Assembly: GCA_964344415.1 (NCBI GenBank)
Contig: CAYFMS010000002.1
Coordinates: 256,593-320,592 of the forward strand
Reading direction: 5' to 3'
DNA: 64,000 nucleotides
Source: an uncultured Gammaproteobacteria bacterium
GTDB lineage: Bacteria > Patescibacteriota > Patescibacteriia > UBA9934
Program-made: the position numbers and the translations under genes
Part shown: in pieces, positions 8,322 to 61,491 of the stretch
Position numbering within the stretch: the stretch's first letter is position 1
Layout of the letters: every line of letters starts with the position of its first letter
Notes under the pieces: generated by a model
The model's database searches: none
What the model was told of the DNA's origin: nothing
Seen by the model: the letters and a program-made list of their open reading frames with translations, nothing else

Positions 8322-10028
8322 CTATGATAACAAATTAATGTCGTTAACGGATAATTGTATCTGCCTTCGCCCATTCCATTCATTCACCCCAACTTCATAT
8401 ACCATATCAATCATAGTGCCCATATTGAGTTTTTCATGCAATGATCCAAGTCCAAATCCAATACACTCAAGCAAATCCCCTGACTGTGGATTGACGGTCA
8501 TTTTTAAATGTCGCCCCGTTTTCCCAACAGGCCTCGCATTCATGACTTGAACATTCTTTGATAGGAAAACTGGTTTAGGATTTTTATGACCAAATGGTTC
8601 CATTTTTTCGAGATTCTCAACCAAATGCCAATCAATATCCTGAATCGGGAATATGGCATCGACTTGCAGATGAGGCTTTGGGATATCTTCACCAAAATAT
8701 TCTAATGCGAAGGATTCCACGCCTTTTTGAAATTCTGCAATCGAATCAAGAGAAGGTAAAGTTAGCCCACATGCCTGAGGATGGCCACCCGCCTTAATAA
8801 AAATATCCCCACAAGACTGCATCGCCTCAACGAGATGCAGCCCTCCAACAGATCGCCCAGACCCAACATAATGATCACCAACTTTCGTGAGTGCGAAGGC
8901 AGGGACCCCGAATTCTGTCACAAGTTTTCCCGCAACGAGACCCACAATTCCAGGATTCCAATGATCCGTCCACACAACATGAATTGGTTTCTGCTCATTG
9001 ATTTCTTTGACAATTTTCTTTGCTTCGCGAAAAGCCCTGTCAGAGATTTGCTGACGCTCACGATTCAGCTGCTCAAGTTCCAGGGCGTGATCAGCGGCCG
9101 TGTCATATTCAGCGATAAGCGCTTTGAATGCCTTTTCGGCAGAGCTGATCCGGCCAGCGGCATTTAGACGCGGACCAATACGAAAACCAATGGCTGTCGT
9201 ATCAATCTGTTTTGGACTTGTTCTAGAGATTTCAAGAATACGCAAAAGTCCAGGTCTGCGTGTTTTTTTGAGAACAATCAGTCCGTACTTTTCAAGCGTT
9301 CTATTCTCGCCAAGAAGCGGCATGACATCCGTGACTGTCGCGATGGCTACAAAATCCAAATACCACTTTTCATGGCCAATCGGGAATTCCGCGCCTCTAT
9401 TGCGAGCTTCGCTGAAGAGCGCAGAGGCTAATTTAAAAGCAACGCCCGTCCCGCATAAATGCTTATTTGGATAATCCTCTCCAGGTGCAAGCGGATGAAT
9501 AATAATGGCATGATTCGGAATGTCACCATTAGCAGCCAACTGATGATGATCACAAATAATCGTTTGAATACCAAGCTCATGCGCTCGATTCAACTCAGCA
9601 ATATTCGCAATGCCGCAATCGACAGTGATCAAGACTGAAGTTTCTTCTTCCGCGAGACGTTCAATCGTATGCATCGCAACGCCGTATCCATCCTTCTCGC
9701 GATCAGGTAGAAAAACATGGATATTCGGATCGATGCTCATGCGGTCGGCTATTTCCCGAATCGACTGATAGAGCAGAGCACTCCCACAAACACCGTCAGC
9801 ATCGTAATCTCCGTGTATGACGATTTTCTTTTTATTTGAAAGCGCCTCAAAAATACAGTCCACCGCTTGATTCATCTGTTTAAATACAAATGCATCATAT
9901 GTATCCCGCTCCCAATTTGGATGCAAAAAATCGGGAATTTGCTCTTCATCCACTCCACGATCATCAAGAAGTGTAATAAGCAAATCCTCGACCTCATCAT
10001 GCTTCACCAACCATTCAAATTTCTGCAT
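8322..10028 (-). CDS. recJ: Single-stranded-DNA-specific exonuclease RecJ
   Basis: 568 aa. DHH-family motifs (IHGDYDADGVCGSALL, ICDHHQ), a DHHA1-like region and a C-terminal OB-like domain. Confidence 0.9.
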   Translation of the reverse strand: MQKFEWLVKHDEVEDLLITLLDDRGVDEEQIPDFLHPNWERDTYDAFVFKQMNQAVDCIFEALSNKKKIVIHGDYDADGVCGSALLYQSIREIADRMSIDPNIHVFLPDREKDGYGVAMHTIERLAEEETSVLITVDCGIANIAELNRAHELGIQTIICDHHQLAANGDIPNHAIIIHPLAPGEDYPNKHLCGTGVAFKLASALFSEARNRGAEFPIGHEKWYLDFVAIATVTDVMPLLGENRTLEKYGLIVLKKTRRPGLLRILEISRTSPKQIDTTAIGFRIGPRLNAAGRISSAEKAFKALIAEYDTAADHALELEQLNRERQQISDRAFREAKKIVKEINEQKPIHVVWTDHWNPGIVGLVAGKLVTEFGVPAFALTKVGDHYVGSGRSVGGLHLVEAMQSCGDIFIKAGGHPQACGLTLPSLDSIAEFQKGVESFALEYFGEDIPKPHLQVDAIFPIQDIDWHLVENLEKMEPFGHKNPKPVFLSKNVQVMNARPVGKTGRHLKMTVNPQSGDLLECIGFGLGSLHEKLNMGTMIDMVYEVGVNEWNGRRQIQLSVNDINLLS

Positions 10029-15254: not shown

Positions 15255-15360
15255 ACGTATTATTACTTCTTACGCATATATTATATGGGCCATTCGCTTA
15301 ATATGGCAAGTGTATATACTAATAAATATGGACCTGCATCTTTGATACAGGTCCGTAAGG

Positions 15361-15597
15361 TCATTCGGCGATAATTGTCAGGTCACCGAAGGGCGTACTC
15401 TGACAAACTGCTTCGTACGTAACCGCACAGCCGTTCTCATCGTCGAGGCAACGGAAGCTGAAGTAGCCTCCAGCCGCTTCGCACCACTCCCGTTCTCTGG
15501 CCTCGATCTCATCACACCGCTCACATGGACATCCGTCCATGGGTACGGTGACCGTACCCGTGAGCAGCAGGGTGATTGCCATCTGTTGCAACGTCAT
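15361..15597 (-). CDS. Small secreted Cys-rich protein encoded in a GC-rich island
   Basis: Start set at MTLQQMAITLLLTG, which is preceded by AAGGAGG. About 78 aa. Hydrophobic N-terminus, then 8 Cys (DGCPCERC...WCE...RCLDDENGC...AVC). The local GC content is conspicuously higher than in flanking genes. Confidence 0.5.
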   Translation of the reverse strand: MTLQQMAITLLLTGTVTVPMDGCPCERCDEIEAREREWCEAAGGYFSFRCLDDENGCAVTYEAVCQSTPFGDLTIIAE

Positions 15598-15731
15598 GCA
15601 CACCTCCTTGTTTATGTGCGCAAAACATTTACCAAATATTTCACGATCTGTCAAGAATTCAGACTTTCACCGCTCGGGAGGATCTCTGTCCAAAATATGA
15701 AAAACAGCCACTAAAAGGTGACTGTTTTTCA

Positions 15732-15752
15732 TGGTTCCCGGACAGGGATTCG
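15732..15752 (-). repeat. 21-nt copy of the tRNA-Gln 3' end (CGAATCCCTGTCCGGGAACCA on the minus strand). A tRNA-like terminus without the rest of the tRNA.
   Basis: An identical string occurs in the full tRNA at 15946..15966. The T-stem 5' half is absent (GAGGGCGAATCCCTG gives only a 5-nt loop). A bidirectional terminator hairpin (aaaaacagccactaaaaggtgactgttttt) abuts it. Confidence 0.6.
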
Positions 15753-15945
15753 CCCTCACCTCTCGGCTCTGCAGAGCCTCGGGATTCCCCGGCGGAGCCG
15801 GGTCAGGCTTCGCCTGAGGGTCCGGGCCTCGCCATGTTGTCTGCTGACAACATATGGCTCCGGCCGTTCGAATCGTCGCAAACCAAACTGTTGGTTTGCT
15901 CAACTGGTCACCATCAAAAAACCGCACTTGCGTGCGATTCTTTGA

Positions 15946-16019
15946 TGGTTCCCGGACAGGGATTCGAACCCCGATTTCTTGGACCAAAACCAAGCGTCCT
16001 GCCATTAGACGATCCGGGA
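15946..16019 (-). tRNA. tRNA-Gln (anticodon UUG)
   Basis: The minus-strand sequence TCCCGGATCGTCTAATGGCAGGACGCTTGGTTTTGGTCCAAGAAATCGGGGTTCGAATCCCTGTCCGGGAACCA folds as a cloverleaf. It has a 7-bp acceptor stem (U1-A72 as in bacterial tRNA-Gln), anticodon stem CTTGG/CCAAG with loop TTTTGGT, T-loop TTCGAAT and an encoded CCA. A terminator hairpin (CGCACgcaaGTGCG plus T6) follows. Confidence 0.8.
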
Positions 16020-18143: not shown

Positions 18144-18578
18144 CTAGAAGCCGAGCAGGTCGCCGTTCTCGCAGTCACCTGCGAGGCCGTCCGCCGTGGG
18201 GTAGATGTACACCCAGGCGTCACGCGTTCCGCAGTGCTCGTCGTTCGTGTCACCGCGGCCCGTGGGGTCGCAAATGACATTCGAACAGCCCATCGCGTAG
18301 ATCTCGGCATTGCCGTACGCGGGGGTCCAGGACTGATCGCAGCGGACTTCGATCATCTCGTCCGGCGTACCCTTGACGAACAAGGGAGCATCGCCCGGGA
18401 AGACGAACTGGTCAGAAATGATGCGATCGTTGTCGCCGGTCACCACACAGTTGCCCATGTGGATCTCGACGGAAGCGAAGGCCTCGTCCGCCGGAAGCTG
18501 ACTGCTGGGCAGCATATCGGCAGGGGCGACATCGCAGGCGGTCAGGACGAAGAGAACGGTAGTGAAGGTGCGGGTCAT
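18144..18578 (-). CDS. Small Cys-containing lipoprotein in a GC-rich island. Paralogous N-terminus to the gene at 51164..51499.
   Basis: Start set at MTRTFTTVLFVLTAC (lipobox LTAC), preceded by GGAG. About 144 aa with 7 Cys. Local GC is far above background. The first residues (MTRTF) are shared with the 51164 gene. Confidence 0.55.
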   Translation of the reverse strand: MTRTFTTVLFVLTACDVAPADMLPSSQLPADEAFASVEIHMGNCVVTGDNDRIISDQFVFPGDAPLFVKGTPDEMIEVRCDQSWTPAYGNAEIYAMGCSNVICDPTGRGDTNDEHCGTRDAWVYIYPTADGLAGDCENGDLLGF

Positions 18579-18728
18579 TGGAATCTCCAAAGGATTCATG
18601 GTTGTACAAATATGAGGCGAACCTCATGAACTAACAGGAACCACTGTACCATTTTTTTAGCCTATTGTCAAGGATTTTTAGTGTTTTTATCGCTAATATT
18701 AGCCAATTTAGGCATTCAAAATAAGTCA

Positions 18729-21212
18729 TCATCTCCCTATCGGTGCGGGTGGTGGGACGGTCTTTCTACGCTGGCCTATGCCAGCACGCTCTGCTATTTC
18801 AGATTCAACATTAGCTTTTGGCCGACCATAGCCCAAACGTGAAATATCTTTAAGTGTATGCATTAATTCTGCATTTGGATCTTCTGGAGCATTCGTTTTG
18901 AGCGTAAATGGCTTTAATTGTGCATTATTCGCAATAATTTTTGCATTCCAAGTATATTTATCGGTATTCATCAAATCATATGATGTAAAGATTGGGTCAA
19001 ATACCTTTCCGAGCACCTCAACATCTTCAGGACCAACTCGGGAAACAAGCATTGTTCCCACATTTCCAAGAACAGCGTCACGAATCTCCGTCTTCCCGTC
19101 CTGCACGAGCTGCCCCATATATTGATGCGCGAGTACCAAATTAAGGCGATATTTCCTCGCCTCGGACAGAATGGTCGCAATAGAAGGAGTAATAAAGTTC
19201 TGGAACTCATCAATGTAAAGGTAAAAATCACGGCGCTGATCTTCTGGCAAATCTGTTCGCGTAAATGCTGCCATTTGCAATTTTGCAACCAGAATCAATC
19301 CAAGAAGATTCGCATTGACCTCTCCCGTCGCGCCCTTTGAAAGATTCACGAGTAATATTTTGCCTTCGTCCATGATTTCACGAAAATCAAAAGCTGACTT
19401 TGATTGACCAATAATATTACGCATCATTTCATTCTCGACAAATCTACCGACCTTGGACACCAAATACCCCATCATTTCAGATTTGTGATAATCACTCGTT
19501 TTCGCCATTTCATCTTCCCAGAATGACCTCACAACTGGATCGGTTACTTTCGCCACCCATTCCTTCTGGAATTTCTCATCTGAAATCATGCGTGGAATTT
19601 CTGCAAGCGTACCCGGATTATCGAGATCCGCCATCAATGTGAGCATAAAATTACGCATATTGTGCTCAAACATTGGACCAATCATTTCCGGCGGGAAAAG
19701 CATATAGAAAATAGAAATCATTTCCTGCACGGCAAAATCGCGCATATTCTCATTCGGCGCTTCGAGCATATTAAGCCCCATTGGCCTTTCCATATCAGAT
19801 GGATTGAAATACACGACATCATCAATGCGTTCGCGCGGAATAGAACCCATAATGGCATCGACAAGATCTCCATGTGGATCAATCACTGCAACACCTTTGC
19901 CAGCCTTGATGTCCTGAAGGGCCATATATCGCAAAAAATACGATTTTCCAGATCCTGTTTTTCCAACAAGATACATATGCCGACGGCGATCTGCATCATC
20001 GAGGAATACTTCTGTTCTATCACCTCGATAGAGATTATAACCAAGATGAAGCCCATCCTGAGGAACTCCAGCTGGCACTGGTGCCGTCCGCGCTTGCAGC
20101 CAACGAATTCCCGGTGTTTCTGTTGTTGGGAGAGGTAAATGCCAAAGCGAGGCCATTTCTTCCGTATTCAAAATGACTTTCTGTGATTCATCGAATTGAC
20201 GATAAATATAGTCCCGCAAAAGCCGTTTTTTGCTTGAAGGAACTTTTACTTCAAATGCATTCCCAATTTCATAAATATTAAATTGACTGAATGCTTGCAG
20301 GACACGATTCATGTCTGCCTCAGCCGACGGAGCTGATTTGCTTGAAGCAATAATGCGAATATTCACATCCATGCCCGCCTTACTGACCTTTTCTGAAATA
20401 CCTTCCGCCATTTGCTCATCTGACTTGGTCGGTTGGCGACGCTCCATCTGTTCACGCTTTTGGTCTCGAGTTTCCTTTGACTGCAATGCAGAACTCCAAG
20501 ATTCACCTCCAGAACGAATCGCCTGATCATAATTCAAACCTTTACGTAAATTATCGGCAATACTTCTTGCGCGTGATCGCCAATCTTTCTTTGCACTGCG
20601 TACAATAAATTGCACGGCAAGCCCTTCATCATCCGACACTTTTGAAAGAGCATTCGTTAAACCACTGAGCGGATCACCTTCAATTGTCTTAAATGTGCGA
20701 ATAGGAAGTGTATGATGCCGTTTTAATTTCAAATACCCACCGACAATAACCCCCTGTGCATGGAAAATATTGTGATCCTGAACCAATTCAATATGAGCAT
20801 CAGGATACTGTGCATGTAATTGCTGCTCAACAAATTCCTGCATGTAAATAGGCGTCGTCACATAGAATGTGATTAATTTTTCATGAGCTACGATCTCAAG
20901 AGCGATTTGATCTGTTCGACCATAAAACCACGCCGAAAGACCTCGCTGCGCCTTCATTCCGCCAATGGCAGCATAAAATGTTTCTGCAATAGCTATTTTT
21001 TCATCAACTTGCTGCTGGCTGCTCGTTCCTCTATCTTCATCACTTTTATATTTCGGAACGGTGATCATGAATGTTTTCAGATAACTCGCACCCCCTTGAA
21101 CAAATTGTCGTCGACGTACAAATGAACGCAATAGCATCAGTACAAAAAATGCCAGGATAATCGCCCCCAGTACAATTCCGATCACAACAAATAACCGTAT
21201 AATTTCCTCCAT
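18729..21212 (-). CDS. Membrane-anchored P-loop ATPase of the FtsK/HerA/VirB4/VirD4 superfamily (type IV secretion / conjugative-transfer-like). In this copy the ATPase is fused to an N-terminal membrane plus soluble domain.
   Basis: 827 aa with an N-terminal TM helix. Residues 40-330 are homologous to the separate 527-aa protein at 55910..57493 (FYVTTPIYMQEFVEQQLHAQYPDAHI aligns with FYIRTQAKTRDLVEAALYAQYPEAQV). The C-terminal half carries Walker A YLVGKTGSGKSY, DPHGD, Walker B DFYLYIDEFQNF and SEARKYRLNLVLAHQYMGQL (Arg-finger / sensor region). This half is about 55-60% identical to the 687-aa protein at 53842..55905. Confidence 0.65.
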   Translation of the reverse strand: MEEIIRLFVVIGIVLGAIILAFFVLMLLRSFVRRRQFVQGGASYLKTFMITVPKYKSDEDRGTSSQQQVDEKIAIAETFYAAIGGMKAQRGLSAWFYGRTDQIALEIVAHEKLITFYVTTPIYMQEFVEQQLHAQYPDAHIELVQDHNIFHAQGVIVGGYLKLKRHHTLPIRTFKTIEGDPLSGLTNALSKVSDDEGLAVQFIVRSAKKDWRSRARSIADNLRKGLNYDQAIRSGGESWSSALQSKETRDQKREQMERRQPTKSDEQMAEGISEKVSKAGMDVNIRIIASSKSAPSAEADMNRVLQAFSQFNIYEIGNAFEVKVPSSKKRLLRDYIYRQFDESQKVILNTEEMASLWHLPLPTTETPGIRWLQARTAPVPAGVPQDGLHLGYNLYRGDRTEVFLDDADRRRHMYLVGKTGSGKSYFLRYMALQDIKAGKGVAVIDPHGDLVDAIMGSIPRERIDDVVYFNPSDMERPMGLNMLEAPNENMRDFAVQEMISIFYMLFPPEMIGPMFEHNMRNFMLTLMADLDNPGTLAEIPRMISDEKFQKEWVAKVTDPVVRSFWEDEMAKTSDYHKSEMMGYLVSKVGRFVENEMMRNIIGQSKSAFDFREIMDEGKILLVNLSKGATGEVNANLLGLILVAKLQMAAFTRTDLPEDQRRDFYLYIDEFQNFITPSIATILSEARKYRLNLVLAHQYMGQLVQDGKTEIRDAVLGNVGTMLVSRVGPEDVEVLGKVFDPIFTSYDLMNTDKYTWNAKIIANNAQLKPFTLKTNAPEDPNAELMHTLKDISRLGYGRPKANVESEIAERAGIGQRRKTVPPPAPIGR

Positions 21213-51163: not shown

Positions 51164-51499
51164 TCAGTCAGCGTAATCCGGACACCCGACGTTGCGATGA
51201 CCGATGTTGTCGCACCATGCGAGGTGGTCAGCTTCTTGCCGAGCCAGCACCGCCGGTGGAACCTCGATCTCCCCGTGCTTGGGGCAACCGACGTTCTGGT
51301 GGTAGATGCTGTCGCACCATGCGAGGTGGTCAGCTTCTTGCCGAGCCAGCACCGCCGGTGGAACCTCGATCTCCCCGTGCTTGGGGCAACCGACGTTCTG
51401 GTGGTAGATGCTGTCGCACCATGCATCATGTCCGATGGTGTCGACGGAATCTCTGCAGGCAGCGAGGACGGTGATCACGATGAGAACAAGTGTGCGCAT
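51164..51499 (-). CDS. Small lipoprotein with internal 34-aa tandem repeats, in a GC-rich island
   Basis: Start set at MRTLVLIVITVLAAC (lipobox LAAC), preceded by AGGGAG. The HLAWCDSIYHQNVGCPKHGEIEVPPAVLARQEAD repeat occurs twice exactly plus a divergent third copy. GC-rich relative to the flanks. Confidence 0.5.
   Translation of the reverse strand: MRTLVLIVITVLAACRDSVDTIGHDAWCDSIYHQNVGCPKHGEIEVPPAVLARQEADHLAWCDSIYHQNVGCPKHGEIEVPPAVLARQEADHLAWCDNIGHRNVGCPDYAD
51211..51414. repeat. Perfect 102-bp tandem duplication (2 copies plus partial flanking copies) inside the lipoprotein gene
   Basis: tcgcaccatgcgaggtggtcagcttcttgccgagccagcaccgccggtggaacctcgatctccccgtgcttggggcaaccgacgttctggtggtagatgctg is repeated identically at 51211..51312 and 51313..51414. 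Confidence 0.8.
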
Positions 51500-51697
51500 T
51501 GGAACTCCCTGAATGAAAGTGCGTGTCATTACGACGTGTGAATATAGCATAAAATAGACCTTTTGTCAATGCAAAAAGGCCAAAATCGCTGTAAAATAGG
51601 CACATTCTTTAGATATTCACATCGGATATAAATACACCGTTTTATATCGGATATGCTTCTAAAACAAAAAGAACCCATCGTTCTAATGAGCTCTTTT

Positions 51698-51716
51698 TGG
51701 TGACCCCACGGGGAAT
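51698..51716 (-). repeat. 19-nt copy of the tRNA-Glu 3' end (ATTCCCCGTGGGGTCACCA on the minus strand), plus shared 3'-flanking A-run
   Basis: Identical to 51873..51891 of the full tRNA. No T-stem 5' half is present upstream. It sits about 150 nt 3' of the intact tRNA, beyond the tRNA terminator and a GC-rich structured spacer. Confidence 0.6.
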
Positions 51717-51872
51717 ATCCTTCGCTACGCTCGGATATGTCTGTTCCTCGCTCGGGAATGTCAAAGTAAACTTTGCCACTCCTCTCGCTTCGTCGCGGCA
51801 TCGAACCCACAGGGTCTGCATTCACCCAGAAGAGTACCAACAAAAAACCAGAGGCAAGCTCTGATTTTTTGT

Positions 51873-51947
51873 TGGTGACCCCACGGGGAATCGAACCCCG
51901 ATTTCCAGGATGAGAACCTGGCGTCCTAACCGTTAGACGATGGGGCC
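51873..51947 (-). tRNA. tRNA-Glu (anticodon CUC)
   Basis: The minus strand reads GGCCCCATCGTCTAACGGTTAGGACGCCAGGTTCTCATCCTGGAAATCGGGGTTCGATTCCCCGTGGGGTCACCA. It has a 7-bp acceptor stem, anticodon stem CCAGG/CCTGG with loop TTCTCAT, T-loop TTCGATT and an encoded CCA. A terminator hairpin (CAGAGcttgcCTCTG plus T6) follows. Confidence 0.75.
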
Positions 51948-52581: not shown

Positions 52582-53007
52582 GTGCAAAACAATCTTGAAA
52601 TCAACATCGCTCGTGACGAGCTTGCGTCCCTTGTGGATGCTCGCTACAAAATGCGCGAGATGACAAAACGTGTAGACGAGGCAAGTAATCGACTCGCCTA
52701 CCTCACCGCTACGGCGATGGTGGTAGTCGACAACGGACAAGATGTCAGGTGCCTGGGGGTTTCTCCCGAGGCCGAGGCCAAACTGATGAGGTTGCGATTC
52801 AACATCATCAGCAACGACATCATCTCCGTCACCTTCTACGCTGGTGACGAGAAGGTGTCCTTCCACCTGCAGCCCGGAGGGATGATGAGCTTCATCATCA
52901 CCGACATGCAAAACGATACTCGGATCTACAAGATCTGGGCTTTCGAAAACGAGGTCGATGCCGGAGCGTGGATGTCCAAACGACTGGCGGACTACTCGGC
53001 GCGCTAG
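52582..53007 (+). CDS. Hypothetical protein encoded in a moderately GC-rich segment. Probable GTG start.
   Basis: 141 aa ORF. GGAGGAAC lies upstream of the GTG. No motifs. Its composition is GC-richer than neighbouring housekeeping genes. Confidence 0.45.
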   Translation: MQNNLEINIARDELASLVDARYKMREMTKRVDEASNRLAYLTATAMVVVDNGQDVRCLGVSPEAEAKLMRLRFNIISNDIISVTFYAGDEKVSFHLQPGGMMSFIITDMQNDTRIYKIWAFENEVDAGAWMSKRLADYSAR

Positions 53008-53069: not shown

Positions 53070-53852
53070 TCAAACAAAGAAAAGCAATAGTACTAATCCA
53101 AGTACTATCCGATATATGGCGAACCATTTATAACTCATTCTTTGTATGAGTTTGAGGAGAAAATGAATGGCAAGAGCTCCGAAAATAGCAGAAGACACAA
53201 ATCCGATCGTAAGAATTGGCATCGAGGTGACAAATCCTGTCTGCATAGCATCAATGAGTGTCATAAATCCTGCGCCGGCGACGGCAGGTATCGCAAGTAA
53301 AAATGAGAAGCGAGCAGCTGCCCTGCGGTCAAGGCCCGCGAATAAGCCAGCTGTCATTGTGATCCCAGAACGCGATGTTCCGGGAATCAATGCTATCACT
53401 TGCGCTACTCCAATAATTGCAGCTTTTCCTAAACTCATTTTTTCTATATTGGCAATATGCCCCTTAATCTTATCGCTATACAAATCGGCAATCCACAAAA
53501 TAATTCCCCAGAAAATAAGAGAAGCTGCCACAATCGTCGTCGTTCGAGTTATTAGGAGGAAATCATCAGTAATAAATAGCCCCGCTAGTACAATTGGAAC
53601 AGTAGCTAATCCAATTGCAAGTAAAAGCCTCGGCTTTTTTATTGCTAAAATGATGTCTGACCGCATCATCCAACAAATCGCAAGAAGCGTGCCCAAGTGA
53701 ACCATGACATCAAAATCGATCGACTGCTGCTCCCAGCCGAATATCGACGGTAATGCGATCAAGTGTCCCGAACTCGAAATCGGTAAAAACTCCGTTATTC
53801 CTTGAATAGCGCCAAGGACAATGGCCTGAATCACGGTCATATTAATTATCAA
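53070..53852 (-). CDS. uppP: Undecaprenyl-diphosphatase
   Basis: 260 aa. BacA/UppP signatures: GITEFLPISSSGHL and PGTSRSGITMTAG. Confidence 0.9.
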   Translation of the reverse strand: MIINMTVIQAIVLGAIQGITEFLPISSSGHLIALPSIFGWEQQSIDFDVMVHLGTLLAICWMMRSDIILAIKKPRLLLAIGLATVPIVLAGLFITDDFLLITRTTTIVAASLIFWGIILWIADLYSDKIKGHIANIEKMSLGKAAIIGVAQVIALIPGTSRSGITMTAGLFAGLDRRAAARFSFLLAIPAVAGAGFMTLIDAMQTGFVTSMPILTIGFVSSAIFGALAIHFLLKLIQRMSYKWFAIYRIVLGLVLLLFFV

Positions 53853-55905
53853 AGTTTATGATTTTCCCCGGTTTCAGAGGCTTTGCATTATTCGCATCCG
53901 ATTGCACTTCTGTCTGCCCAGACTTTTTTCGACGACGCCGTCTTCTTTTTCGCTTTTTCGAAGGCTTTTGATCAGAAGGGAGGTTTTCTAGTTGTTCAGG
54001 ATCTGATCTTTCAGGGCTTGGCTCTTTCACATCAGTAGGGGGATTTGACGGCTCTGATACTGGCGCATCATCTGAAACCGTATCAGCAATCGTGGCCACA
54101 TGCTTATCTTCGCCAACACGCAAATCAGAAAGCGCTTTTCCAACTTCGCTCGCCTTGCTGAATTTCGCATCCTCGTTCGGCGTCATTGGTCGCTTTCCGA
54201 CATATTCAAGCTGATGTTCATGATCGTCTGACTGACCTGTCGGATCCGCTGCTTTATCCTCGACTTTCTTCTCATCTTTCTGTGAGTTGTCTTTCTTCGT
54301 CAATTCTTGAAGTGAAATCTCTTTTCCAACCTTTTTTTCAACAACCTCTCCCTCTTTCACACTTGGAGGTTTTTTAACAATATTCTTCTCCTTTTTCTTT
54401 GACTCTGCTTTACGGACCTTACCCTTCGTACGCTCCTCTTTAATAATCGGATGGCAATCCTCGCAATAAATAGGCCGCGAACGATCAAGCTCAACCGGCA
54501 ATTCAAATTCCTTATCGCAGCGCGTGCAATTATATTTATGCATGTATTTCTGCTTCTTGGCTGCCTTTTTGGCCGCTTTCACCTCAGCCATCTTTTCCTC
54601 GACATCAATATCGGCACCGAAACCACTCCACTCAAATACACGTTCTTCAATTTTTTCGCGAGGCTTCGCATAGCGCTCGCGAGTCTGTTCAACAATTTTC
54701 GGCGTACTTTCTGTTTCATGCGCCACCGGAGGCAGTGTCACCGCAGAAAATGGCTGTGATGTTACACCATCAATCATCAATTTCAAATATACATTGAATT
54801 TCGGCAAATTAATGAGATCTTCCGGAACAAAGCGAGGAGCAAACTCATCCTCCATAAACTGTGCATCGGGCGCACCGACACGGAATGTCACAATGGTTCC
54901 AACGTTCCCAAAAACCGCATCCCGCACCTCTTCCGTCAATTGCGCAATATATTGATGCGCCATGATCAAATTCAGACGATATTTCCGAGCCTCAGACAGA
55001 ATCGATGCAAAAGATTCAACGGCAAAGTTCTGAAATTCATCAACATAGAGATAGAAATCCTGACGTTCCTCCTCTTTCATATCGACACGCTCCATCGCCG
55101 CCATCTGGATTTTTGTAATAAGCATTCCACCAAGTAGCCGAGATGCATCCTCACCAATTGCACCCTTTGAAAGGTTTACGATGAAGATTTTCTGACTATC
55201 CATGATATTACGTATATCAATCGTTGACTTCGCTTGCGCAACAATATTTCGAATAATGGCAGCAGAAATGAATTGACCAACTTTGTTCTGAATCGGCGCA
55301 ACCGCTTCTGTAGCAAATTTACTCTGATAGGACCCGAATTCTTGAACCCAAAACTGCTTAACGATTGGGTCTTTAATATTCCCGATGATTTTCTTTCGAT
55401 AATCCTCATCAGAAAGCATGCGATTAATGCCTAGCAGCGTCGTCCCAGGCGTATCAAGAAGCGCCAGAATAGTGTTATTCATGATGTATTCCATTCGAGC
55501 CGACCAAACACCTTCCCAAATTTTCTTAAACACGCCCATCAATCCAGCAGCAACCAAATGCTTCTTATCTTCTTCAACCGCCTCCAAAATATTAAAGCCG
55601 ATTGGGAATTTTAAATCAGCCGGATTGAAATATACGACATCATTTATACGCCATGACGGAATGCGGTCAACGATTTTCTCAGCAGTATCTCCATGCGGAT
55701 CAATATAGCAACAGCCATGCCCCGCATAAATATCAGAAAGAATGAGATTTTCAAGCAGCGTCGTCTTTCCCATTCCGGTTTTACCAATGACATACATATG
55801 CCGACGACGATCGTCAGTTTTAATACCGAATACTTTCATCTGATTTCGGAAATTCACCTTTCCAAAATAGATGATGTCATTTTCGTGATCATGTTCGTAT
55901 TGCAT
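53842..55905 (-). CDS. P-loop ATPase of the FtsK/HerA/VirB4/VirD4 superfamily (type IV secretion / conjugative-transfer-like) with C-terminal zinc ribbon and poly-Lys/Arg tail. Paralog of the C-terminal half of the 827-aa protein.
   Basis: 687 aa. Walker A YVIGKTGMGKTT, DPHGD, Walker B DFYLYVDEFQNF and SEARKYRLNLIMAHQY. Then CTRCD...CEDCH (a four-Cys/His ribbon), a long Lys/Glu-rich disordered tail and a terminal KKRKRRRRRRKK. Confidence 0.65.
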   Translation of the reverse strand: MQYEHDHENDIIYFGKVNFRNQMKVFGIKTDDRRRHMYVIGKTGMGKTTLLENLILSDIYAGHGCCYIDPHGDTAEKIVDRIPSWRINDVVYFNPADLKFPIGFNILEAVEEDKKHLVAAGLMGVFKKIWEGVWSARMEYIMNNTILALLDTPGTTLLGINRMLSDEDYRKKIIGNIKDPIVKQFWVQEFGSYQSKFATEAVAPIQNKVGQFISAAIIRNIVAQAKSTIDIRNIMDSQKIFIVNLSKGAIGEDASRLLGGMLITKIQMAAMERVDMKEEERQDFYLYVDEFQNFAVESFASILSEARKYRLNLIMAHQYIAQLTEEVRDAVFGNVGTIVTFRVGAPDAQFMEDEFAPRFVPEDLINLPKFNVYLKLMIDGVTSQPFSAVTLPPVAHETESTPKIVEQTRERYAKPREKIEERVFEWSGFGADIDVEEKMAEVKAAKKAAKKQKYMHKYNCTRCDKEFELPVELDRSRPIYCEDCHPIIKEERTKGKVRKAESKKKEKNIVKKPPSVKEGEVVEKKVGKEISLQELTKKDNSQKDEKKVEDKAADPTGQSDDHEHQLEYVGKRPMTPNEDAKFSKASEVGKALSDLRVGEDKHVATIADTVSDDAPVSEPSNPPTDVKEPSPERSDPEQLENLPSDQKPSKKRKRRRRRRKKSGQTEVQSDANNAKPLKPGKIINFDN

Positions 55906-60960: not shown

Positions 60961-61491
60961 ATGACATCAACACTCTTGCTGCTTTGGCTGACCATGACCG
61001 CATGGGCGCAAAGTACCATCGAGCTGGCGCAGGAAGAGTCTGTGCGGCTGAATCAGGAGATTAGGAAAAAATGCGAGGAGGCGGTAACGACTCGGGACAT
61101 GATACGAATCTATCAGGTGTATTTCCCACTGATGACCGGCGTCATCGACCGCATTAATGTCGAACAAAACACCATTCTTGAGGCGCGTATGCGTATTTAT
61201 GAACGCAAATTCTCGCTTCCTCATGACGAGGTACGTTACATTGCGCTCGCAAGTATTCGAGATGAAGCTTGGGCATTTCAACTCGAAGTCATGAATGAAC
61301 TCGACGAATATAAGGGCATTCTTCGACTCATCGAGCGAGGCACACTCAGCATGCATACGACCATCGGGCAGGGTGAGTGCATGGCGCGCCTCTCCTATAT
61401 CCCGCAAATCGTTGTCGAGTCGGCAGATCTCGACAAAAGGATCACAGAACTCACGAATCCCCAAAAATTAGAGGCCGATAAATGGCACTGA
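60961..61491 (+). CDS. Hypothetical secreted protein
   Basis: 176 aa. Signal peptide MTSTLLLLWLTMTAWAQS. Helical and charged, with no motifs. Moderately GC-rich. Confidence 0.45.
   Translation: MTSTLLLLWLTMTAWAQSTIELAQEESVRLNQEIRKKCEEAVTTRDMIRIYQVYFPLMTGVIDRINVEQNTILEARMRIYERKFSLPHDEVRYIALASIRDEAWAFQLEVMNELDEYKGILRLIERGTLSMHTTIGQGECMARLSYIPQIVVESADLDKRITELTNPQKLEADKWH

Follow-up and report, generated by a model that had tools for sequence, protein, structure and literature searches.

Introduction

Morons are independent transcription units added to phage genomes, gene 15 of HK97 being an example; they are described as having their own promoter and terminator and a GC content unlike that of their surroundings (PMC3594210). 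Phages also encode small surface lipoproteins of the Ltp type, which exclude superinfecting phages (PMC3952083). A further described kind comprises tRNA-associated genomic islands and islets, together with the decayed integrative elements known as cis-mobilizable elements (CIMEs) (PMC5704250). We compare with these systems a 78-codon gene on the minus strand at positions 15361-15597 of a 64,000-nucleotide stretch of contig CAYFMS010000002.1, hereafter the window, which belongs to a small genome (at least 768 kb) of the Candidate Phyla Radiation (CPR)/Patescibacteria. An initial annotation had proposed that this gene is horizontally acquired cargo of an effector, toxin or bacteriocin type.

Llp and Cor are likewise small phage-encoded surface lipoproteins that exclude superinfection. 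The genomes of CPR/Patescibacteria are tiny and their presumed lifestyle is one of attachment to other cells; both the surface proteins that they deploy and their routes of gene gain are poorly known. Our preferred reading, to which we give a probability of roughly 0.6, is that the small gene is a foreign, self-contained and moron-like unit from a high-GC mobile source, most likely a phage-related one, and that it encodes a disulfide-rich mini-protein of the cell envelope. We see no new system in the gene, which adds one more case to a familiar class, that of moron-like orphans gained by horizontal transfer. More unusual are the recurrence in the window of GC-rich genes for leader-bearing proteins with seven cysteines (Cys) and a conserved element, here called element X, that shares the 3' end of a tRNA. 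The locus offers a clean example of a compositionally foreign single-gene insertion within a housekeeping block, with a relative in a phage context.

A stand-alone gene of foreign base composition

The gene and its expression signals are the following.

15361..15597, minus strand: coding sequence of the 78-aa protein (ATG at 15597, stop at 15361-15363; from the list of open reading frames, ORFs)
15601..15609, minus strand: Shine-Dalgarno sequence AAGGAGGTG (AAGGAGG core, 5-nt spacer to the ATG; read from the sequence)
15626..15654, minus strand: promoter-like site (perfect -35 TTGACA at 15654-15649, weak -10 TAAATG at 15631-15626; read by eye)
15330..15354, minus strand: intrinsic-terminator-like hairpin (11 pairs and a T-rich tail, beginning 7 nt past the stop; from a terminator scan)

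The 78-aa product has the sequence MTLQQMAITLLLTGTVTVPMDGCPCERCDEIEAREREWCEAAGGYFSFRCLDDENGCAVTYEAVCQSTPFGDLTIIAE and opens MTLQQMAITLLLTGTVTVPMDGCPCERC...; the coordinates given for its ORF in the initial annotation are exact. A longer variant of 97 aa with a TTG start is listed mechanically. We disfavour it: this TTG lies inside the TTGACA hexamer and is without a ribosome-binding site, whereas the ATG has AAGGAGG. The two hexamers of the promoter-like site are separated by 17 nt ending in TGG. A consensus scan missed the site because its -10 hexamer is without the final T, and by its sequence it is probably the promoter of the small gene. An identical 78-aa protein is encoded on 7 contigs of the same project, and the 5 places listed, from four sequencing runs, are 99.9-100% identical to the window. 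Since the same locus is present in contigs of separate runs, it is no assembly chimera. We conclude that 15361-15597 is a genuine stand-alone gene. Its likeness to a moron begins here, as the gene is single and has, besides the inferred promoter-like site, a terminator of its own detected by the scan.

Base composition extends this likeness. Positions 15361-15597 are 56.5% GC against 44.4% for the whole window (z = 3.0, top 1.3% of 237-bp windows). As a control set we used 1,496 in-frame 78-codon windows drawn from the 28 genes of at least 200 aa. The small gene lies above all 1,496 of them both in GC (0.565; control mean 0.443 ± 0.032, maximum 0.560; z 3.8) and in GC at third codon positions (GC3, 0.641; control mean 0.356 ± 0.067, maximum 0.615; z 4.2), a deviation of the kind described for morons. 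GC at codon positions 1/2/3 is 0.57/0.49/0.63, and the excess is greatest at synonymous sites. For comparison, GC3 is 0.37-0.40 in mnmA, dnaX, a 343-aa neighbour and a VirD4-like gene, and spans 0.31-0.48 from gene to gene among the long genes. The GC-rich anomaly reported by the initial annotation is thus real, and with both values above every control window it cannot be put down to gene-to-gene variance, the outcome that the annotation itself had named as damaging.

The anomaly is narrower than had been described. The coding sequence is GC-rich, as stated, but the spacers are host-like (41% GC upstream at 15598-15726, 35% downstream at 15255-15360), and at 44% GC the genome called AT-rich is only moderately so. 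The intermediate GC3 of the small gene would be compatible with partial amelioration of a high-GC import.

Absence from relatives and a homologue in a phage module

The DnaX protein of this genome is closest to Candidatus Uhrbacteria entries. Through DnaX we recovered relatives in the protein database whose DnaX is 48-60% and whose MnmA is 62-74% identical to those of the window; among species representatives of GTDB the closest DnaX is only 40% identical. Gene order is kept in the relatives as CysS, a small gene, a VirD4-like gene, DnaX, tRNA-Gln, a variable part, then MnmA, LepA, RecJ, RNase H and PilM, and the neighbours within ±10 kb of the 78-codon gene (5361-25597) are likewise DnaX, MnmA, LepA, RecJ, PilM and similar genes. 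The content of the dnaX-mnmA interval is different in each relative, being a phosphatase, an ABC transporter or orphan genes. The tRNA-Gln is found in every relative whose contig covers the interval, and in one of them (L092) the next gene starts 107 bp after it.

The presence or absence of the gene in sister genomes, a check suggested in the initial annotation, gave a consistent answer: by tblastn the 78-aa protein is absent from all five relatives that span dnaX, tRNA-Gln and mnmA. Judged from these sequences, the small gene is a gain specific to this lineage, and the interval from dnaX/tRNA-Gln to mnmA in which it sits is a plasticity zone. Contigs of several related genomes (L089, L090, L097 and L098) stop in or just past tRNA-Gln or dnaX, as might be seen if the region downstream of dnaX were a hotspot that varies or is difficult to assemble.

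The initial annotation had expected a remote-homology search to return nothing. This was nearly so, with one exception. An exhaustive HMMER search over 1.84 billion representative proteins returned five matches, and the sole true homologue among them is P0004, a protein of 77 aa (E 1.7e-4 against the whole library; pairwise BLASTP 38% identity over 63 residues, E 3e-12). The two proteins have similar lengths, the same hydrophobic N-terminus and the common pattern ...PM..DGC...C(x10)CE..GG...C..D..G....E.VCQS.P. In their codon alignment, nucleotide identity is 0.52/0.60/0.38 at positions 1/2/3, and 14 of the 24 identical residues are encoded by different codons. Since position 3 is the least conserved and the codons differ, selection has acted on the protein.

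This substitution pattern bears on the possibility that the ORF arose by chance in GC-rich noncoding DNA, for example in a structured RNA such as element X. A stop-free run of about 97 codons at 56% GC has an estimated p of ~0.03 per frame from base composition, and the adjoining GC-rich segment is indeed noncoding. A protein-level homologue with coding substitutions, a strong and well-spaced Shine-Dalgarno sequence and a terminator directly after the stop nevertheless make a chance ORF scarcely credible.

Further searches added no member to the family. A word-indexed search of 5.8e9 proteins returned only the protein itself when started from the single sequence, and only the two members when started from a two-sequence profile. 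tblastn against 50,697 phage genomes stayed at chance level (E ≥ 4), back-translated pattern scans of IMG/VR and JGI metagenomes found no relatives, and a profile search of 919 ORFs on 24 IMG/VR contigs with ERF relatives found no family member upstream of erf.

The contig that carries P0004, L086, is 3 kb long, and its GC in sliding windows is ~56-70%, mostly 61-70%. The coding sequence of P0004 shares ATGA overlaps with both neighbours, at the stop of the preceding gene and at the erf start, and is thus translationally coupled. Directly downstream are genes for an ERF recombinase, an SSB, a helix-turn-helix protein and a RusA resolvase. The ERF protein has relatives in 1,256 phage records, and the RusA protein matches phrog_140 at 1.2e-22. 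This gene content is that of a phage module for early recombination and replication, derived from a high-GC host.

Taken together, foreign GC at synonymous sites, absence from the five spanning relatives and a sole relative in a phage module of 61-70% GC make horizontal acquisition the best reading, and in this respect the initial annotation was right. The comparison with morons has limits. The small gene lies outside any recognisable prophage and without phage genes in its neighbourhood, only P0004 being in a phage module, and P0004 is embedded in its operon by overlapping stop and start codons and is not free-standing. By analogy, the small gene resembles a moron that outlived its phage or that came without the rest of it.

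Several observations weigh against a foreign, phage-related origin. The flanks that carry the promoter-like site and the terminator are as AT-rich as the host, and the foreign look is confined to the coding sequence. The Pfam-annotated gene table holds no phage, integrase or transposase gene within ±10 kb, and there are no mobility genes near the other GC-rich islets of the window. The family consists of two members only. Host-like flanks and the lack of mobility genes or flanking repeats are also what a native, fast-evolving, lineage-specific gene would show, its GC following from amino-acid content or local mutation bias; GC2 is raised too (0.49), and so is GC3 in several other small ORFs of the window. 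A native origin is nonetheless very improbable. The excess peaks at synonymous sites, where it exceeds all control windows, no related genome spanning the interval carries the gene, its only relative lies on a GC-rich phage-like contig, and a second islet of the window is demonstrably an insertion that separates two genes lying side by side in all 7 relatives compared.

Predicted features and role of the 78-aa protein

The product has a hydrophobic N-terminal leader at about residues 6-19, followed by an acidic part that holds 7 Cys, and not the 8 of the initial annotation, in the spacing C-x-C-xx-C-x10-C-x10-C-x6-C-x7-C. Acidic residues far outnumber basic ones (14 D+E vs 4 K+R), and the net charge of the mature part is about -10. 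A hydrophobic N-terminus of 13-15 residues is kept in the 78-aa protein and P0004, with peak Kyte-Doolittle 11-residue means of 1.9 and 2.3; Pro and small residues come next, as P-M-(S-G)-D-G. P0004 has 5 Cys, all in common with the window protein; the two added Cys are Cys57 and, depending on the alignment, Cys23 or Cys25. Their occurrence as a pair is as expected of one added disulfide.

In our preferred reading the hydrophobic segment would direct Sec-dependent export, and the acidic remainder of ~56 residues would form one helix on a beta-hairpin (a low-confidence prediction) stapled by disulfides, five Cys being those common with P0004 and one extra pair having been gained by the window protein. 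The first Cys, in the conserved DGC, may be free or lipid-modified, as the odd Cys count suggests. We favour export because the hydrophobic N-terminus is conserved, because an odd Cys count coincides with a DGC at the junction, and because two sister islets encode 7-Cys lipoproteins. At the cell envelope the product might mask or block a surface structure, a receptor or an injection step, by analogy with superinfection exclusion; alternatively, it might serve contact between the episymbiont and its host cell. We hold an envelope role of either kind with low confidence.

The analogy with Ltp-type proteins is one of small size, an export-type N-terminal leader, phage association and expected expression from a resident genome. 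It does not extend to sequence: there is no sequence or profile similarity (PHROGs), a canonical lipobox is lacking, and the Cys-rich acidic domain is unlike the Ltp repeats.

Against export, no K or R stands ahead of the hydrophobic run of the leader. The usual rule for bacterial lipoproteins is PROSITE PS51257, and the 78-aa protein departs from the lipobox [LVI][ASTVI][GAS]C, as it reads ...TVPMDG-C with D at -2 and M at -3; P0004 reads ...PMSGDG-C at the matching site. For want of a canonical lipobox and of a basic residue ahead of this run, we regard export as no more than plausible. The AlphaFold2 model (strand 11-19, helix 24-41, hairpin 44-52/58-67) is weak, with a predicted local distance difference test (pLDDT) score of 59, and builds the leader into a sheet. 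A Foldseek search of the PDB with this model gave a best E of 0.4 and no significant neighbour. Given the weak model and this result, we draw no conclusion on the fold. On L086, moreover, P0004 sits among genes of cytoplasmic DNA metabolism.

Some of these points favour the main rival, in which the product is a small acidic Cys-rich phage protein of the cytoplasm, a zinc-binding or DNA-mimic-like anti-host factor whose N-terminus is a beta-strand. Small acidic proteins of the Cys/Zn or DNA-mimic-like anti-host type are often found beside erf in phage early operons, and P0004 lies inside an erf-ssb-rusA early operon. The modelled sheet strand at residues 11-19, the absence of a basic residue before the hydrophobic run, a CxCxxC cluster and the net charge of about -10 would all suit such a protein. 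We nevertheless consider it unlikely. The conserved hydrophobic N-terminus followed by Pro and small residues tells against it, the second CxxC or CxxH knuckle typical of zinc ribbons is lacking, and the extra Cys come as a disulfide-like pair. Further, the other two GC-rich 7-Cys proteins of the window are clearly lipoproteins, and the confidence of the model that places the strand is low.

A secreted toxin, bacteriocin or effector, as proposed by the initial annotation, would also be small, Cys-rich, horizontally acquired and equipped with a leader-like N-terminus. Disulfide-rich bacteriocins and defensin-like peptides are typically cationic, whereas the mature part of the 78-aa protein is acidic. 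It has neither a double-glycine leader nor the CxxxC...CxC pattern of the cysteine-stabilised (CS-alpha-beta) peptides, and no immunity, ABC-transporter, processing or modification genes lie within ±10 kb. No Pfam model matches the protein even at E ≤ 10, PHROGs and PADLOC hold no family for it, and the fold search of the PDB offers no partner. We therefore consider this proposal improbable, its toxin and bacteriocin variants being unsupported; an effector may still be conceivable. The same three collections (Pfam, PHROGs and PADLOC) hold no family for P0004 or the other islet proteins either.

One local resemblance deserves mention. Residues 43-70 (GGYFSFRCLDDENGCAVTYEAV) resemble a strand-turn-strand motif, G.YTVTVTDDNGC.VTTEAV, found after SprB repeats, and in this the protein is like the SprB/PKD-like gliding proteins of PF13573. 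Three further matches of the HMMER search, P0003 and P0005 (SprB-repeat matches) and P0006 (a basic repeat protein), were rejected as homologues, as only this ~28-residue motif (G.Y......DD.NGC.VT.EAV) is common to them and the 78-aa protein. All three are long repeat proteins with scores summed over 7-14 repeats; P0003 carries SprB repeats (PF13573), and the SprB-repeat match reaches a summed E of 1.6e-15 over 14 repeats. With a short motif and a repeat-summed score, the resemblance is local and does not denote family membership, in line with the missing Pfam match.

The tRNA-Gln and structured element X

The initial annotation had taken a partial copy of tRNA-Gln beside the gene for the scar of an island. 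The features concerned are these.

15946..16019, minus strand: tRNA-Gln(UUG), intact (ARAGORN and Rfam)
15732..15916, minus strand: element X, the proposed scar (185 nt, three hairpins and then a copy of the tRNA-Gln 3' end; ~60% GC)
15697..15732, minus strand: terminator-like A-tract, hairpin and T-tract (inverted repeat I2 and sequence), between element X and the promoter region of the small gene

The tRNA-Gln occupies the same place in six relatives (L091, L092, L093, L094, L095 and L006), and its position downstream of dnaX is, from this distribution, ancestral. Its last 21 nt recur perfectly at 15732-15752 as part of a 26-nt direct repeat. The likeness to a tRNA-associated island is plain: the small gene is near a tRNA with a direct repeat of its 3' end, is atypical in composition and is variably present among relatives. 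The repeats at 15732-15752 and 15946-15966, however, enclose 193 nt of 60% GC without a gene, the ORF lies outside the pair, and an integrase is absent from 5361-25597. No third copy of the repeat was found with up to 5 mismatches. With the ORF outside the pair and no third copy, the repeat cannot be the attachment (att) pair of a gene-bearing island.

Element X is also present after tRNA-Gln(UUG) in two relatives without the small gene, L091 (5570-5725, in a locus of 35% GC) and L094 (8577-8731), where the tRNA 3' end and terminator are duplicated almost perfectly. Across these three Uhrbacteria-like genomes it is ~155-185 nt long, with long near-identical stretches and compensatory substitutions in the three hairpins. 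In the three-sequence alignment, 16 of 47 predicted pairs are altered on both sides; shuffled controls gave 5.3 ± 1.9, with 0 of 500 reaching 16, and slid controls gave 0-2. Folding z scores are -4.4 for the window copy and -3.1 for that of L094. Such conservation with covariation is unexpected for a decaying scar and is a further difference from the island model.

Since element X is kept in relatives that do not have the small gene, it is older than the gene and independent of it, and the copy gives no evidence for an island. The tempting inference is corrected by these data: the partial tRNA copy is a conserved, covarying structured element and not a decaying att scar. From its three copies, element X would be either a conserved noncoding RNA that shares a tRNA 3' end or the conserved arm of a miniature decayed integrative element of CIME-like kind. 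It matches no Rfam family even at E ≤ 10, pattern scans of viral and metagenome collections returned nothing, and a covariance model finds only the three known copies and tRNA-Gln 3' ends. Element X may be worth a separate study.

An additional GC-rich hairpin of 39 nt (15780-15818) is present in the window copy of element X but in neither L091 nor L094. Position 15779, which borders this insert, is precisely where two independent Logan contigs (L002 and L004) break off, a hint that the population is polymorphic for this indel. In L094, a GC-rich segment downstream of element X (8790-8900) is closed by a long-range helix (GGCCGCCGCCCA...TTGGGCGGCGGC); Rfam offers no match for this segment, which may represent another structured RNA.

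Other GC-rich islets and neighbouring genes

The window holds three further GC-rich islets.

18144-18599, minus strand: islet lipoprotein MTRTFTTVLFVLTAC... (GC3 0.82, lipobox LTAC, acidic, 7 Cys)
51164-51550, minus strand: islet lipoprotein MRTLVLIVITVLAAC... (GC3 0.71, lipobox LAAC, acidic, 7 Cys)
52582-53007, plus strand: GC-rich orphan ORF (141 aa, GC3 0.72, no leader, no family match)

Between the VirD4-like gene and dnaX, the islet at 18144-18599 takes up a spacer of 744 bp, where each of the 7 relatives compared has only 38-118 bp; it is therefore an insertion. A target duplication around it was considered and rejected, as the 11-nt and 13-nt colinear direct repeats are near chance by our own estimate and the alignment of relatives gave no confirmation. 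This islet also has a promoter-like TTGACA and a terminator, and its public gene call is on the wrong strand. The protein of 51164-51550 consists of three tandem 34-aa (102-nt) repeats with two Cys each, and its islet lies just past a duplication of the tRNA-Glu 3' end. Both islet lipoproteins have one lipobox Cys and six others, and searches with them likewise gave nothing useful. Paralogy among the three 7-Cys islet proteins was rejected (BLASTP E > 1).

Thus at least three GC-rich genes for Cys-rich, leader-bearing products lie in the same 64 kb, one insertion being proven by synteny. The products of these three cassettes are unrelated acidic proteins, each with a leader and exactly 7 Cys. 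Two of the cassettes are found a short way downstream of a tRNA gene, and in both cases a stretch that closes with a copy of the tRNA's own 3' end comes after the tRNA; for tRNA-Gln this stretch is element X. A speculative and rather improbable extension is that such GC-rich single-gene cassettes are captured from phages or high-GC donors at preferred landing sites, the tRNA-3' elements being recombination or landing pads or a new class of tRNA-mimicking RNA. If this were true, the episymbiont would have in the cassettes a rapidly changing repertoire of surface proteins.

The second tRNA concerned is tRNA-Glu(CUC) at 51873-51947 (minus strand), a copy of whose last 19 nt lies 175 nt downstream at 51698-51716. 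The segment between the tRNA and this copy contains a degenerate T-arm-like stretch (51794-51808) and can be folded with the copied 3' end in a helix of ~11 bp and an ACCA overhang, at a folding z score of only -1.1. A longer antisense ORF overlaps the orphan ORF at 52582-53007.

The VirD4-like gene is one of two in the window that encode homologues of VirD4/TrwB-like coupling proteins (DUF87/T4SS-DNA_transf), at 18729-21212 and 53842-55905, both on the minus strand; the synteny of the former is kept in all relatives examined. A giant gene running on the minus strand from ~24704 to beyond 25597, called at 5,238 aa and without a Pfam match in the public annotation, lies upstream of the CysS/VirD4-like/DnaX block. 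Finally, a 176-aa ORF at 60961-61491 (plus strand) has a signal-peptide-like start (MTSTLLLLWLTMTAWAQS...) and a raised GC3 of 0.58, and its product may be another acquired secreted protein.

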